NCBI GenBank assembly: GCA_036149055.1
Contig: JAYZQJ010000081.1
Coordinates: 12,076 to 76,075 of the forward strand
Length of the DNA: 64,000 nucleotides
Direction: 5' to 3'
Source: Myxococcota bacterium
GTDB lineage: Bacteria > Myxococcota_A > Polyangia > Polyangiales > Sandaracinaceae
Shown: positions 36,219-41,843 of the stretch, one piece after another
How positions within the stretch are numbered: position 1 is the stretch's first letter
Layout: the number at the start of each line of letters is the position of its first letter
Made by a program: the position numbers and the translations under genes
Notes under the pieces: generated by a model
Database searches by the model: none
Told to the model about the DNA's origin: nothing
What the model saw: only the letters and a program-made list of their open reading frames with translations

Positions 36219-36791
36219 TCACGCGGTGGCGTCGAACACGTTCACTTCGAGGGGCGGCCAGGCGAGCCGGGCCATGAAGAGCGCGTGGGCGAGGCCGGCG
36301 GCGCAGGGCACGGTGGCGAGGCCGGCGAGCATGACGCCCTCTTCGTCGCCGAGGAGCGCGAAGGCGAGCACGACCAGCACGTGGTGCACGGCGGACCAGA
36401 CGGCGACCGGGCGGTGGCGCGAGACGCGGCTCGGATCCCGCAGCGCGCGGATGCCCACCCAGACGAGCGCGCCCGAGAGCAGGACGCCCGAGGCGCAGAC
36501 CGCGAGGAGCGAGTAGCCCGCGGCCGGGTCGCCCTCCATCACCATCAGCGCCAGCGCGCTGCCGCCCGGCGCGAAGCCGAAGACGGTGCAGAGCGCCCAG
36601 AACACCCCGAAGCCGGCGCTCCACCGCAGCGCCTCACCGGGGCGCTCCGGCAGCGGCGCGGTCGAGCGCGAGGCCCGGTAGGCGCCCTCCCCGGCCTCGA
36701 CGGTGGCGGCCCGACCGCGGCGCGCGGCGAGGTGGGTGGCGGCGAGCGCGATCCCCGCGAAGGTGACGACCCCGATGAGCAGTGCCAGCAT
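36219..36791 (-). CDS. hypothetical membrane protein (about 5 TM)
   Basis: AGGAGG RBS; hydrophobic helices; GAYR motif. Confidence 0.72.
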   Translation of the reverse strand: MLALLIGVVTFAGIALAATHLAARRGRAATVEAGEGAYRASRSTAPLPERPGEALRWSAGFGVFWALCTVFGFAPGGSALALMVMEGDPAAGYSLLAVCASGVLLSGALVWVGIRALRDPSRVSRHRPVAVWSAVHHVLVVLAFALLGDEEGVMLAGLATVPCAAGLAHALFMARLAWPPLEVNVFDATA

Positions 36792-36949: not shown

Positions 36950-37357
36950 ATGCAGGACGAACGCGTCTCCGCTCGCACCCGGGCGCTGCGCGCCGCGCGG
37001 GCCATGAGCATCGCCGCGGCGCTCGCGCTCGGCCCCGGCTGCTCGATGAGCCACGACTCGCTCGACTCGGGCGTCGACGCGGCCCCGCCGGTAACGGACG
37101 GCGGGATCGTCGACAGTGGGCCGGTCGACAGCGGGCCGGTCGACAGCGGCCCGGTCGACAGCGGCGTCGACAGCGGGCTCGCCGACTCGGGGATCGACGC
37201 GGGGACCTGCGAAGACATCGAGTGGACCGGCAGCTGCTGCGAGCCGATGCCCCGCGAATGCTGCGAGACGACCTTCGTCGGCGAGTGGATCGAGGAGTCG
37301 GGCTGCTGCGCCACCTGCATCGAGGGCCCGCTGACCCCGCCGTCGGCGCCGGTCTGA
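36950..37357 (+). CDS. Cys-rich small lipoprotein / putative RiPP-like precursor, copy 1 (135 aa)
   Basis: RALRAAR leader, GPGC lipobox-like motif, DSG repeats, C-x8-CC-x6-CC-x13-CC-x2-C, IEGPLTPPSAPV. Confidence 0.8.
   Translation: MQDERVSARTRALRAARAMSIAAALALGPGCSMSHDSLDSGVDAAPPVTDGGIVDSGPVDSGPVDSGPVDSGVDSGLADSGIDAGTCEDIEWTGSCCEPMPRECCETTFVGEWIEESGCCATCIEGPLTPPSAPV
37109..37177 (+). repeat. 15-bp coding tandem repeat (VDSGP)n
   Basis: GTCGACAG(C/T)GG units at 37109, 37124, 37139, 37154, 37166. Confidence 0.8.
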
Positions 37358-37368
37358 GAAGGAGAGCC

Positions 37369-37728
37369 ATGGAGACGGAACGAGAGAGCGCCCGGTCGCG
37401 GGCCCTGCGCGCGGCCCGGGTGATGAGCGTCGCGGCCTCGCTCGCGCTCGGCGCGGTGGGCTGCTCGATGAGCCACGCGACGGTCGACTCGGGGGTCGAC
37501 GCGGGACCGAGCGGCGACGGCGCCGTGGCCGACTCGGGGGTCGACTCCGGGATCGACTCGGGGGTCGACGCAGGAGCCTGCGAAGACATCGAGTGGACCG
37601 GCAGCTGCTGCGAGCCGATGCCCCGCGAGTGTTGCGAGACCGCCTTCGGAGGCGGCTGGGACGAGTCGGCCGAGTGCTGCTTCACCTGCGCCGAGGGCCC
37701 CCTGACCCCGCCGTCGGCCCCGGTCTGA
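37369..37728 (+). CDS. Cys-rich small lipoprotein / putative RiPP-like precursor, copy 2 (119 aa)
   Basis: AAGGAGAG RBS; RALRAAR leader, AVGC lipobox, same 8-Cys spacing, AEGPLTPPSAPV; paralog of 36950..37357. Confidence 0.82.
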   Translation: METERESARSRALRAARVMSVAASLALGAVGCSMSHATVDSGVDAGPSGDGAVADSGVDSGIDSGVDAGACEDIEWTGSCCEPMPRECCETAFGGGWDESAECCFTCAEGPLTPPSAPV

Positions 37729-37730
37729 GC

Positions 37731-38591
37731 GTGAGAGGAACCCTCCGGGTCGACGCGGGCGAGGGCCCGCTCCGGGCGCAGCACGACCGGCTGATGCGCA
37801 CCGCGCTGCGGCGGGGCGACGGGGATCCCGAGGCCGCCCTCGAGGGCGCGGCGCTCGAGGGCGACTACCGGCCCGAGACGCTGGCCTACGCGCGGGGCGC
37901 CTGGCTCGAGCGCATGCGGCGCGAGCACCACTCGGCGGCGGTCTTCTCGCAGATGCTGCCGCAGCTGATGGACGCCGGGGCCACGCTCGACACCAAGACC
38001 GCGGTGCTGCGCATGGCGATGGAGGAGCTGCGCCACGCGGGGCTCTGCGGCGGCGTGGTGAGGCTGCTCGGCGCCGAGCCGAGCCTCGAGACCGAGCTGA
38101 TGCCCGCGCCGCTGCCGCTCCACGAGAAGGCCACGCCGCGGGAGCGAGCGCTCCGGAACGTGCTCTTCGTCGGGGTGAACGAGACGATCGCGGTGGCCCT
38201 CCTGACCGAGGAGCGCGAGCTGACCCGCGAGCCCGCGATCGCGGCGGTGCTCGAGCAGCTGGTGGCCGACGAGGTGGGCCACGCGAAGCTCGGCTGGACG
38301 TACCTCGCCGAGACCTGGCCGACCCTCGACGCGGCGCAGCGGGCGCGCACCGACGCCTACCTCCCCTACGCCTTCGCCTACCTCGAGGAGTCGCTGATGG
38401 GGCCGATCGCGCGGCTCCGCTACGACGACGCGCGGCGGGACGAGCTGAACGCGCTGGGCCTCCCCGCCCCTCAGGACCTGCGGGAGCTCTTCTACGCGGC
38501 GATGCAGCAGGCGGTGCTCGCGCCGCTGGACGCCCAGGGGCTGGCCGCCTCGGAGGGCTGGGCCGCGCGCGCGGCTACCCGAGCCAGGTGA
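37731..38591 (+). CDS. ferritin-like (diiron-carboxylate four-helix bundle) protein
   Basis: W..RM.REHHSAAVF, MEELRHA (ExxH), NETIA, DEVGHA.LGW (ExxH); starts 2 nt after the copy-2 stop. Confidence 0.85.
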   Translation: MRGTLRVDAGEGPLRAQHDRLMRTALRRGDGDPEAALEGAALEGDYRPETLAYARGAWLERMRREHHSAAVFSQMLPQLMDAGATLDTKTAVLRMAMEELRHAGLCGGVVRLLGAEPSLETELMPAPLPLHEKATPRERALRNVLFVGVNETIAVALLTEERELTREPAIAAVLEQLVADEVGHAKLGWTYLAETWPTLDAAQRARTDAYLPYAFAYLEESLMGPIARLRYDDARRDELNALGLPAPQDLRELFYAAMQQAVLAPLDAQGLAASEGWAARAATRAR

Positions 38592-39363
38592 GCCCGCCGC
38601 AGACGAGGATCGCGGAGCCGAAGAGCACGACCAGCCCCGCCTCGCACGCGCCCCGCCAGCGCTGCGCGGCCGCGCGGTGAGCCTCCGGGAGCCCGGCGAT
38701 CGTCACCCAGCGCTCCTCGGCGCCGTCGCGGTAGGTCTCGCCCTGGGGCGCGGCGAGCGAGAAGAGCGCGCAGCCGTCGCCCTCCGGGAGCGGCGTGGTC
38801 GGGCGCGCCGGCCCGCGCTCGCGGCCGTCGAGGAAGAAGAGGCTCCCGTCGACCCGGACCCGCACCGGGCGGGCGTGTCGCAGCTCGGCGAGCCAGCGAC
38901 CGAGGCTCGCGAGCCGCCCGAACAGGAGCGCCAGGAGCAGGAGCCCGCTGGTCGCCGCGCCGAGCCACCAGGGCGACGCCGACGGGGGCCGCCGCCAGCT
39001 CGAGAACCAGCCGAGCCGCGCCAGCTCCACCTCGCCGCCGCGGTTGCGCAGCTCCATGCGCTGCCCCTGCGGGTAGGAGGCGAGGAGCCGATAGCCCTGC
39101 CCGGCGAAGCCCGCGAAGACCTCGCAGCGCGAGGCGTCGCAGCTCTGGCGGAGGTGCGCGTGCCCCATGCGCAGCTCACGGGTCCGGCTCGACTCTCCCT
39201 GCCGGAGAGCGAGCGGGTCGAGGGTCAGCCGCTCGCCCTCCCCGAAGCTGTCGCGCTCCGCCTCCGCGCGCCGGAGATCCACCGTGCGCAGCGCGCCGGT
39301 GAACAGACAGACCGCGTAGATCGCGGCGAGCAGCCCGATCGAGATCGTGACCCAGCGAGACAT
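38575..39363 (-). CDS. hypothetical membrane protein
   Basis: Three TM segments; ETYRD motif. Confidence 0.65.
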   Translation of the reverse strand: MSRWVTISIGLLAAIYAVCLFTGALRTVDLRRAEAERDSFGEGERLTLDPLALRQGESSRTRELRMGHAHLRQSCDASRCEVFAGFAGQGYRLLASYPQGQRMELRNRGGEVELARLGWFSSWRRPPSASPWWLGAATSGLLLLALLFGRLASLGRWLAELRHARPVRVRVDGSLFFLDGRERGPARPTTPLPEGDGCALFSLAAPQGETYRDGAEERWVTIAGLPEAHRAAAQRWRGACEAGLVVLFGSAILVCGGLTWLG

Positions 39364-39407: not shown

Positions 39408-41843
39408 TCACTCGACCGAGATCAACGCGTCCACGTCGAACACCCCGCCGCCGATGAGGCGGGCCTGGCTGCCGCGGGCGTGGGCGTCGAAGCCCATCAC
39501 GCCGGCCGCGCGGTAGTGGTCGTAGTCCTGCCCGAAGCGGTCCTCCATGCGCATCTCGAGGTCGAGGCGCACGTCCATGGACTCGGGGCGGGTCAGGGCG
39601 AGGAGCGCGTAGGCGACCGCGGCCTCGGGGCGCACGCCGTCGAGGTCGTCGGCGTCGTCCACGAGCCCGTCGAAGAGCTCGCGCACCACCTGGGAGCGGG
39701 CCTGCACGACCGAGCGCGCGGTGGCGGCGTCGTAGTCGACGCGGTCTCCGCTCAGCGGCACGTCGACCGCGACCGCCCGGCCGCCGATCGCGCCGAGGCC
39801 GTCGATGCGCGCCCGCTCGACCGCGACGAGGCGCTCGTAGGCGTCGGCCTGCGCCTCGAAGCGCGCGACCATGGCGTCGAGGGCCCGGTCGTCGCCCAGC
39901 CCCGCGCGCTGCGCGTCGACGTCGTCCGCCCGGTCGACGGTGACCGCCGCGAGCACGCCGAGGACCGCCGCGCGGAGCCGCTCGCCTTCGCCCGAGGTCA
40001 GCGCCCGGGAGAGGCTCGCGTCGTCCATCCGGTAGCCGAGCACCACGCTGCTCTCGGGGCCGACCAGCGACGCGTTCGGCTCGGCGACCGCCTGGTAGCG
40101 CACCCGGAGCTCGACCGCCGCGCGGAGGAGCGCGGTCATCTCGGGCTCGAGCCCGGCGCCCTCGATCGCGGCGAGCGCGTCGGCCTGGGGCCCGGTCACC
40201 TCGCGGTCGTCGAGCACGTCGGTGCGGCAGGCGGCGCCGGGGCCCACGCCGCCGGGGCAGACGCGCTCGACGTGCCGCTCGATGGCGTTGCCGTGCGCCT
40301 CGATCTCGGCCAGCAGCGCCGGGCCGCCGACCGCGGTGATCAGCGCGTCGAGGTGATCGAGCGTGGTGTCGCGCTCCATCCACTCGTCGCCCTCGAGCAC
40401 CTGCACGAAGAGGTTCACCTCGGACTCGACCGCGCGGCCGTCGGCGTCGAAGCGCAGGCCGGCGAGCGAGACCCGCTCGTGGCCGTGGGTCTGGAAGAAC
40501 CAGCCGCCCTCGCGGTGGAGCGAGTCGAAGAGGAGCTCCTGGGCGCCGCCGGGGGTGTCCACGCGGACGCTGCCCTCCTCGGCGATGGTGGTCTGGAAGA
40601 AGCGCATGCCGAACAGCTCGACGCCGGCGTGCGACACCGCCGAGAGGCCCGAGCGCGACACGTCGTACTCGAGGGTCACGCCGGCCTCGCCCCGCGCCGA
40701 GAGCGCCTGCGCCAGCCGCACGTCGCCGCGCGCCGCCTGGGACAGCGCCTCGGCGAGCCGCGGGTCCTCCTCGCTCAGGTCGAAGCGCAGCCGGATCACG
40801 CTCATGCGGGTGCTCCGGCCGGTCCGCTCGACCTCGGCGCTCACCATGCTCAGCCGCTCGTTCAGCTGGCGCTGGAGGGCGCGGTCGAGGAGCCGGCCGA
40901 GGTCCACGTCGCGGCCGCCGAGCGAGACGTTGGTCCGCGCGAGCCCGCTCACGCCCCAGCCGTCCTCGAGCGCGAGGCGCGCCGAGCGCACGCTGCTCCG
41001 GTCGGTGCCGACGTCGATGACCGCCTCGTCGCCCTCGAGCCGGACCACCTGCACGTCGAGCTCGCCGGCGATCTGGGCCCGAAGCGCGGCCGAGACGACG
41101 AGGCTGTAGGTGAGGCTCCCGGGGTCGGCGACCACGATCGGCACGCCCGCGCCCACGTTCACGCCGAAGGCGCCCTCGCCGCGCAGCGCGAACGCCTCGC
41201 CGGGCCGCATCGCGCGCACGTCCTCGAGGTCGCGCGGGGCCACGAAGCCGCGGGTCTCGCGCAGCGCGGCGTAGATCGCCTCGGGCGAGGTCCCCGCGTC
41301 GCGCCGGGTGGCGTGGATCGCCCGGCCCTCGACCGAGCCGCGCAGCCCGAGCGCCGCCGAGCCGTCGAAGCCGTCGCCGTCGATGGCGAAGCCGTGGTCG
41401 AGCCCGGCGTCGAGCGCGAAGCGGCTCTCCACGAAGACGTCGTCCTCGCTCGCCCGGAGGTGGCGGCGCCGCGTCTCGGTGACGGTCACCGAGAGCTCGC
41501 GCTCGCCGAAGCGGGCCAGCAGCCCGGCGCCCAGCGCGTCGAGGTCCTCGACCAGCGGCTCCTCGGCCGCCGTCTCCGCGAGCCCGAAGGCGGTCACCTC
41601 GCCGATCTCGACGCCGACGCCGTCGCCCGAGAGCGCGTCGTTCAGCCCCTCGCTGGCCAGCCCGGTGCCGCGGGCGCTCAGATCCGTCAGGTCGAGCTCG
41701 CGCAGGTCGTCGTAGAGGGCCCGGATCGAGTCGAGGCCGTCGCACTTTCCGGTGCAGGTGACCGCGCGCGACTCGGGCGCGGGCCCGGTCTCGGCGCAGG
41801 CGGAGAGGAGGAGAGCGAGGAGAAGAATGCAGCGCTGGGTCAT
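39408..41843 (-). CDS. large hypothetical lipoprotein (811 aa)
   Basis: Lipobox LSAC followed by CTGKCDG; strong coding bias. Confidence 0.82.
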   Translation of the reverse strand: MTQRCILLLALLLSACAETGPAPESRAVTCTGKCDGLDSIRALYDDLRELDLTDLSARGTGLASEGLNDALSGDGVGVEIGEVTAFGLAETAAEEPLVEDLDALGAGLLARFGERELSVTVTETRRRHLRASEDDVFVESRFALDAGLDHGFAIDGDGFDGSAALGLRGSVEGRAIHATRRDAGTSPEAIYAALRETRGFVAPRDLEDVRAMRPGEAFALRGEGAFGVNVGAGVPIVVADPGSLTYSLVVSAALRAQIAGELDVQVVRLEGDEAVIDVGTDRSSVRSARLALEDGWGVSGLARTNVSLGGRDVDLGRLLDRALQRQLNERLSMVSAEVERTGRSTRMSVIRLRFDLSEEDPRLAEALSQAARGDVRLAQALSARGEAGVTLEYDVSRSGLSAVSHAGVELFGMRFFQTTIAEEGSVRVDTPGGAQELLFDSLHREGGWFFQTHGHERVSLAGLRFDADGRAVESEVNLFVQVLEGDEWMERDTTLDHLDALITAVGGPALLAEIEAHGNAIERHVERVCPGGVGPGAACRTDVLDDREVTGPQADALAAIEGAGLEPEMTALLRAAVELRVRYQAVAEPNASLVGPESSVVLGYRMDDASLSRALTSGEGERLRAAVLGVLAAVTVDRADDVDAQRAGLGDDRALDAMVARFEAQADAYERLVAVERARIDGLGAIGGRAVAVDVPLSGDRVDYDAATARSVVQARSQVVRELFDGLVDDADDLDGVRPEAAVAYALLALTRPESMDVRLDLEMRMEDRFGQDYDHYRAAGVMGFDAHARGSQARLIGGGVFDVDALISVE

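Follow-up and report, generated by a model that had tools for sequence, protein, structure and literature searches.

Lipoprotein-pathway members of the class of peptides made on the ribosome and modified after translation (RiPPs) have a published precedent in the DAG-RiPPs, comprising DybA/DybH and related ChrH-type systems of oxidative enzymes that depend on multinuclear non-heme iron (MNIOs), as presented in the accessible part of PMC13056109. Here we describe a three-gene cassette of two small lipoprotein-like precursors and a ferritin-like diiron protein, located in a 64,000-nucleotide stretch (the window; contig JAYZQJ010000081.1, positions 12,076 to 76,075, forward strand) of a 9.9-Mb Myxococcota genome of the family Sandaracinaceae (GCA_036149055.1). 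In common with the DAG-RiPPs, so far as the accessible text of PMC13056109 describes them, it shows a two-gene logic with a cytoplasmic iron enzyme devoid of a signal peptide, a precursor combining a lipoprotein signal with a conserved C-terminal motif, a non-lipid signal in some members, and no dedicated protease or exporter. In contrast to what that text describes, the enzyme is a four-helix ferritin-like diiron protein and not a TIM-barrel MNIO (DUF692); the motif is G-P-x-x-P-P with optional Cys and not CPxCGxG, which is absent from both window precursors; the signal peptide is conserved in sequence and is the modelled docking site; and precursor-enzyme fusions occur. The word "ferritin" has 0 occurrences in the main text of PMC13056109, whose supplements may bear on novelty. 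Bufferins and oxazolins are likewise Sec-exported, Cys-rich precursors modified by a cytoplasmic iron enzyme, but according to the accessible text of PMC11626156 and PMC12452194 they rely on an MNIO with a DUF2063/RiPP recognition element partner, the Cys residues are what is modified, and the signal peptide is dispensable for modification.

The cassette is real, conserved and widespread in myxobacteria, and is apparently an undescribed enzyme-precursor system, in which a RiPP of the lipoprotein pathway would be served by a maturase superfamily new to that role. We consider it probable that the enzyme oxidises the GPxxPP region of the precursor before export, in a two-component RiPP-like maturation system. 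Its features, in window coordinates, are as follows.

36950 to 37357, plus strand: precursor gene 1, 135 residues, with leader/signal, lipobox-like Cys31, acidic linker, 8-Cys domain and GPLTPP tail
36950 to 37042, plus strand: leader/signal peptide of precursor 1 to Cys31, with RxALRAA helix, hydrophobic stretch and G-P-G-C
37208 to 37354, plus strand: 49-residue Cys-rich C-terminal domain of precursor 1
37325 to 37342, plus strand: GPLTPP of precursor 1 (family motif G-P-x-x-P-P), proposed modification or recognition site
37369 to 37728, plus strand: precursor gene 2, 119 residues, paralog 75% identical to gene 1 and partner chain in the complex model
37369 to 37464, plus strand: leader/signal peptide of precursor 2 to Cys32, with A-V-G-C; A12, L13, A15 and A16 are the best-defined modelled enzyme contacts
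37579 to 37725, plus strand: 49-residue Cys-rich C-terminal domain of precursor 2
37696 to 37713, plus strand: GPLTPP (G110-P115) of precursor 2, within the 104-119 stretch that the model places in the enzyme groove
37731 to 38591, plus strand: ferritin-like diiron protein, 286 residues, GTG start, predicted fold of the R2/PaaA/aldehyde-deformylating oxygenase (ADO) type, no signal peptide
37923 to 38282, plus strand: predicted enzyme ligands E65, E99, H102, E151, E181 and H184

As reported in the initial annotation of this stretch, the three genes lie on the same strand with gaps of 11 and 2 nt, and both paralogs carry RALRAAR(A/V)MS, a hydrophobic stretch running to GCSMSH, a DSG/DAG linker, the spacing C-x8-CC-x6-CC-x13-CC-x2-C within 49 residues, and an identical C-terminal EGPLTPPSAPV. 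Its description of the third gene was also confirmed: the E/ExxH/E/ExxH ligand set is present, and the N-terminus is not hydrophobic (best 10-residue hydropathy -0.03, versus 2.2 for the precursors). The lipobox of gene 1, G-P-G-C, is non-canonical. Because a contig from a public run reproduces positions 36960 to 38144 with the layout kept (8 letters differ, and 12 nt are inserted between genes 2 and 3), the arrangement is not an assembly artefact. One contig of run X3 joins 37205 to 37577 into a single chimeric precursor, with 52 letters matching both sides; either the two paralogs have recombined or the assembly has collapsed there.

Pairing of precursor and enzyme was followed across genomes from both sides. 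Starting from the enzyme, 242 genome loci were obtained; of the 80 best (L001-L080), 77 carry a related small gene, mostly directly upstream and in some cases downstream or on the opposite strand; it is absent from the fetched stretch at L009, L021 and L071. Named relatives are Myxococcota, many of them Sandaracinaceae or Polyangiaceae. Starting from the tail, a profile trained on enzyme-adjacent peptides gave 54 matches, including the two window precursors, in 47 of the 401 genomes searched within the class (17 candidates scored per genome; some of these genomes also served for training), and 53 of the 54 lie within 2 kb of an enzyme match. Among the best 91 enzyme matches, 50 have a tail match and 90 a signal-bearing small partner. 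The other 41, read by eye, comprise 29 with a GPxxPP precursor, five with a GP(R/Q)PAP variant, four with a YDGG-type core, two in which just the leader is present (one of these truncated where the contig ends) and one with nothing within 5.5 kb. An enzyme gene without a recognisable precursor within 5.5 kb is seen at L165/L259. Phylum-wide, the tail search returned 56 matches at E <= 0.01 in 43 of 301 genomes, and the enzyme lies within 1.5 kb in 20 of 24 new tail-selected loci, at least five of which repeat training loci; three of the remaining four stop at a contig edge. Fourteen further tail matches were fetched, seven with the enzyme, four being real precursors without it and three looking spurious. 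The dedicated pairing supposed at the outset is thus borne out by these counts and by the natural fusions described below. An enzyme relative at E <= 1e-20 is found in 189 of the 401 genomes of the class (a count that includes the unpublished G332 and G364, which enter into no other statement made here), and the cassette is carried by the cultured Minicystis rosea, Chondromyces apiculatus and Nannocystis spp. (L047, L049, L062, L064, L077).

What is conserved in the precursors was assessed on 125 distinct sequences, with leader and lipobox statistics taken from 87 split precursors. The constants of the family are R-x-R-A-L-R-A-A, a Cys after the hydrophobic stretch, and G-P-x-x-P-P. The G, P, P and P of the motif are invariant in an alignment selected on the motif, the leader contact columns (A12, L13, A15, A16) are 94-100% conserved in a partly circular measure, and the lipobox-like Cys stands in 69 of 69 aligned rows selected with that feature; these percentages are inflated, since the sets were picked on motifs. 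The tail-selected loci mostly carry the same leader. Within the genome of the window the leader is specific, its profile scoring 42 bits on both window precursors and at most 23 on every other open reading frame (ORF), and the family combines the conserved leader, variable core and dedicated enzyme gene expected of a RiPP. The residue preceding the motif Gly is unconstrained (P 53, W 51, E 9, G 4, V 3, others; n=125), and 1-29 variable residues follow GPxxPP. The tail, formerly described as invariant, is so in the two paralogs and one close relative and not in the family. Only 6 of 125 precursors, from four loci, show the 8-Cys spacing, and only 4 of 125, from two loci (one a near-identical strain), have the exact tail of 11 residues; both were rejected as family hallmarks. 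The DSG/DAG linker was likewise discarded as a system-specific feature, dozens of lipoprotein-like ORFs in this genome having an acidic linker. Pfam and NCBIfam assigned the precursors to no family (one transposase match at E 0.1 was disregarded), and an ESM Atlas search with precursor 2 gave no lead (first matches <=0.82, template modelling score <0.4). In one clade (L066/L174, L186, L200, L201, L203) the signal peptide is apparently of a non-lipid type, with no lipobox Cys and the GPxxPP end retained.

These statistics bear on whether the enzyme instead oxidises or cross-links core Cys or Trp residues in MNIO-like chemistry, with leader and tail serving only for recognition, a possibility that we regard as unlikely. 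The main clades do keep four Cys (97-99%) and one Trp (71%), a Cys lies 3-8 residues upstream of the motif Gly in 124 of 125 precursors, and C104 and C107 fall within the modelled contact stretch. However, Cys number in the 60 residues before the motif ranges from 0 to 9 (four in 66 of 125), counts being mostly even and spacing widely variable, as for disulfides formed after export, and most of the core is outside the modelled interface. Five precursors (L091, L168, L171, L173, L178) are free of Cys beyond the lipobox yet retain leader and GPxxPP. At L172 and L175 the mature part has shrunk to the lipobox Cys, followed by GPPAPP within five residues.

A protein search with the enzyme scored 8000 candidates and identified 161 of them as relatives, which fall into a close group (43-79% identity) and a broader one at around 40%. 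Of 195 aligned relatives, 192 retain all six predicted ligands, the three others having gaps at E65. D180 (192/195) and H131 (172/195) are further conserved residues besides the two ExxH His; the AurF family has a 3-His/4-carboxylate site, according to the accessible part of PMC13108848. [quoted passage not shown] Its top structural matches are tied and indicate fold, not function: 4mud, PaaA-like (Z 17.3, root-mean-square deviation (rmsd) 2.6, 208 aligned residues); 6d9f (Z 17.0, rmsd 4.3, 246 aligned); PaaA 3pvr (Z 16.7, rmsd 3.2, 224 aligned); R2 6y2n (Z 16.3, rmsd 3.4, 232 aligned); and soluble methane monooxygenase, sMMO (Z 15.9, rmsd 3.4, 240 aligned). AurF and CmlI follow at Z 10.8-11.3. 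Foldseek returned nothing at E <= 0.001, its weak rows agreeing with the structural comparison. The AurF family of Pfam (PF11583) stays below its gathering score (22.8 bits versus 29.6), as does rubrerythrin (13.2 versus 22.8). NCBIfam gave no match for the enzyme, and DUF692 was matched in neither Pfam nor NCBIfam. By sequence and model, the third gene product is a diiron oxygenase-type protein of the R2/PaaA/ADO ferritin-like kind, in which Mn or a mixed metal site is also conceivable. It shares fold (Z 11-17) and E/ExxH/E/ExxH ligands with PaaA, aldehyde-deformylating oxygenase, R2/R2lox, sMMO and AurF/CmlI, and differs from these in sequence, with at most 18% identity to the best structural or sequence matches.

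Identity as a rubrerythrin or storage ferritin was considered and rejected, given the sub-threshold profile, the 286-residue length and the helices beyond the bundle. The same evidence bears on the idea, raised earlier as an alternative, that the locus is a metal-handling module in which a surface metallothionein-like peptide receives its metal from a ferritin-type iron protein or shares regulation with it. The Cys-rich, acidic sequence of the precursors would suit such a role, the enzyme has a weak bacterioferritin sequence match (E 0.0003), and bufferins, which are exported RiPPs, bind metal and carry lipoprotein signals in about 16% of one family (accessible text of PMC12452194). Against this stand the long oxygenase-type fold, to which storage ferritins align across only about 145 residues (Z 10-12), the rubrerythrin profile far under its cut-off, the Cys-free family members, and the lack of metal transport or resistance genes recurring beside the loci. 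The proposal thus fared poorly, and we hold it to be very unlikely. Both core Cys modification and metal loading are disfavoured because the 8-Cys and tail hallmarks are local and Cys-free precursors exist.

Binding between enzyme and precursor, which had been put forward as a check, was predicted in a model of the enzyme with full-length precursor 2 and two Fe, with leader and tail both engaged. The interaction prediction score from aligned errors (ipSAE) was 0.93, versus 0.01 for the best control. Among solved complexes 116 of 157 attained that mark, and among mismatched pairs 2 of 215. The runs share at least 53% of contacts, with partner pLDDT of at least 55; no solved complex of like sequence was found (best identities <=18%). 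The sharpest contacts are those of leader residues A12, L13, A15 and A16 on enzyme segments 152-160 and 253-261, and the interface further takes in precursor residues 104-119 and hardly any more of the core. On the enzyme side it comprises residues 64, 67, 68, 71, 125-133, 142-153, 178-194 and 206-230, positions flanking E65, E151 and E181/H184. Reading the two contact lists together, we would place the precursor tail in a groove beside the iron-ligand helices. A natural fusion folded by a separate method gave leader blocks with pLDDT 95 and 86 and a linker below 50, consistent with a docked leader and not proof of it. All of the best-defined contacts involve the leader, as would also be expected if the ferritin-like protein were a chaperone that binds signal peptides, or an export gate, and catalysed little or nothing; retention of the six ligands in nearly all relatives and the modelled insertion of the tail near them make this highly improbable.

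In 16 proteins precursor and enzyme are naturally fused, in the order leader, lipobox, core, WGPxxPP, a 12-17-residue linker and enzyme. When the 12 fused rows are mapped on a FastTree tree of 195 enzymes, 7 changes are required and strong branches force at least 2 of these, so the fusion probably arose more than once. An origin of the fusions as single sequencing errors was rejected, as they comprise 16 proteins from several lineages. Pfam and NCBIfam found nothing in the one fused protein searched.

The fusions would also suit a small protein that is a permanent partner (membrane anchor, gate or inhibitor) of a diiron enzyme acting on a lipid or small molecule, the pair perhaps being co-exported. 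The complex model shows binding alone, proteins of the closest folds have small-molecule substrates and in several cases depend on effector proteins (accessible part of PMC13108848), and 35 of the 87 split leaders are Tat-like (twin-arginine translocation), matching RRx(A/L)L. However, in the model the enzyme holds on to the very signal peptide that export would remove, and no conserved metabolic genes lie nearby. Substrates would also account better than a subunit for scattered lone copies and for arrays in which one enzyme has as many as four divergent precursors. Folded co-export by Tat was set aside as unlikely because the twin-Arg motif is missing from both window copies and from 15 of the 16 fusions (present in 1/16). 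Overall we judge such a partner role to be rather unlikely. The four-precursor arrays are in tandem upstream at L014/L237 and split at L037, with one precursor upstream and three downstream.

For oxidative maturation of the tail we propose the following course. The cytoplasmic enzyme would bind the precursor at two modelled points, the RxALRAA helix and the C-terminal tail. Since the docking helix sits at the start of the signal peptide, the latter would double as the RiPP leader, without a separate recognition element. The diiron centre may then use O2 on backbone or side chain in, or just before, G-P-x-x-P-P. Our first choice of chemistry, a tentative one, is hydroxylation at the Gly C-alpha followed by C-N cleavage, which would leave a C-terminal amide and discard the GPxxPP follower. 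It is preferred because it does not depend on which residue comes before the Gly and accounts for the variable trailing residues, and because it resolves the placement of a cytoplasmic diiron domain behind an export signal in non-Tat fusions. Hydroxylation or desaturation of Pro or Gly with the tail kept is a close second, slightly more doubtful, whereas cross-linking to a nearby Cys or Trp, third, seems improbable. The product would leave via Sec and be lipidated at the invariant Cys by Lgt/LspA, and disulfides would form in the variable Cys domain of a product residing in the envelope.

Peptidylglycine alpha-amidating monooxygenase cleaves oxidatively at Gly to leave an amide, matching the preferred chemistry, and borosins are autocatalytic fusions with precursor and maturase in one chain. 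In contrast to both, enzymes and cofactors here are unrelated and the Gly is internal with Pro next to it, so the analogy is a lead only. Known ferritin-like diiron oxygenases act on small molecules or carrier-bound substrates. None acting on a gene-encoded precursor was found in the literature searched, and no description of a ferritin-like maturase with lipoprotein precursors was found there as judged by titles and abstract openings, subscription papers being largely outside. For heme-oxygenase-like dimetal enzymes, which have another fold, modification of ribosomal peptides is cited in the accessible part of PMC13108848.

Several points weigh against this scheme. Modification, iron binding, O2 use and lipidation rest on prediction, and the enzyme behind an export signal in the fusions fits only if cleavage occurs. 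The ipSAE is a model confidence whose calibration is only rough (own alignments, with the ligand riding along), and the model output does not identify the precursor residue facing the irons. In the fusion model the tail block is only moderately confident (pLDDT 69), and the modelled interface is not enriched in conservation (mean top-residue frequency 0.52 over 64 positions, versus 0.53 over 163). A strict lipobox is present in only 29 of 87 precursors and a relaxed form in 74 of 87. No conserved reductase gene lies near L001-L080, and the dispensable signal peptide of bufferins (accessible text of PMC11626156) speaks against a leader role. Finally, stand-alone precursors exist (G273, G455, G611, G571, G602), although each of these genomes has an enzyme match elsewhere, a partial one in G571. 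In a search of five genomes chosen for such lone copies, all gave an enzyme match elsewhere, two of them partial, so the lone precursors look like substrates acted on in trans. On balance the RiPP-like interpretation of the initial annotation is favoured by the pairing, the fusions, the modelled leader and tail binding and the lipoprotein-RiPP precedent, while its assignment of the Cys/Trp core as the modified or metal-loaded part was not supported.

Distant clades of the enzyme pair with other small exported proteins, often with repeated motifs: (I/V)NxP repeats, YDGGxxG repeats, CNxxPDPC or GRGF ends. By tblastn and hmmsearch of the genome, all three other paralogs in the genome of the window have their own partner. 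The first (L130, contig C123, 1619-2867) is a ferritin-like paralog preceded by an (I/V/A)NEP-repeat lipoprotein, with similar NxP-repeat partners at L217 and L219; the second (L131, C198, 3672-5452) is a distant paralog following a Cys-rich lipoprotein without GPxxPP. The third (L132, C227, 4687-6000, minus strand) is a lipoprotein fused to the ferritin-like domain, in which C-x-x-G-R-(R)-P immediately precedes the enzyme part, a type also found at L124, L126, L127 and L129; this motif is possibly the counterpart of the GPxxPP site. Upstream precursors at L181, L193, L197, L198, L199 and L216 carry YDGGxxG...NPD, repeated up to several times, with a multi-core look, and partners at L212, L214, L215, L218 and L220 end in GRGF(IL)S or contain CNxxPDPC. 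It is conceivable, although we rate it as rather doubtful, that the Myxococcota branch as a whole consists of maturases that read the signal peptide as a leader and cut oxidatively at the Gly of GPxxPP, including G-R-(R)-P of the fused clade. Products would then be C-terminally amidated lipoproteins, fusions would release themselves from their export signal, and sister clades would perform other chemistry on the NxP or YDGG repeats. Such a self-cleaving oxidative sorting step would be a novel case with no described counterpart.

If oxidative maturation of the tail is correct, ferritin-like diiron oxygenases would join the enzyme superfamilies that tailor ribosomal peptides, lipoprotein-pathway RiPPs would extend beyond MNIO enzymes, and a signal peptide would be seen to act as a RiPP leader. 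It would also give a substrate class to the large set of genes annotated as 'ferritin-like domain-containing', present in nearly half of the genomes of the class, and a portable tool for modifying protein tails could result. Because it consists of two genes, with linker and core tolerating almost any sequence, the cassette is directly testable and a possible tool.

As stated previously for this locus, no protease or transporter is conserved near the cassette, and across L001-L080 neither a reductase nor a second tailoring enzyme recurs, in a neighbour survey whose filter dropped Arg-rich ORFs and ORFs below 110 residues. Genes for LysR regulators, of more than one type, are near 13 of the 80 loci, the remainder of the neighbourhood being local synteny. 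They lie directly upstream of the precursor at L052, L054, L057, L059, L061 and L068 and close to the cassette at L016, L019, L023, L032 and L039, which suggests inducible use. At three related loci (L003, L005, L007) the enzyme gene directly adjoins one for a thioredoxin-like (AhpC-TSA/Redoxin) protein. In the window the cassette is flanked by three ORFs:

36219 to 36791, minus strand: 190-residue membrane protein
38575 to 39363, minus strand: 262-residue ORF
39408 to 41843, minus strand: 811-residue lipoprotein-like ORF

None of the three matched a Pfam or NCBIfam family above cut-off or belongs to the recurring neighbour clusters, and a scan for promoters and terminators found none. Among the RNA runs (4 of 8 examined, as contigs), the best covers all 30 bins, flanks included.

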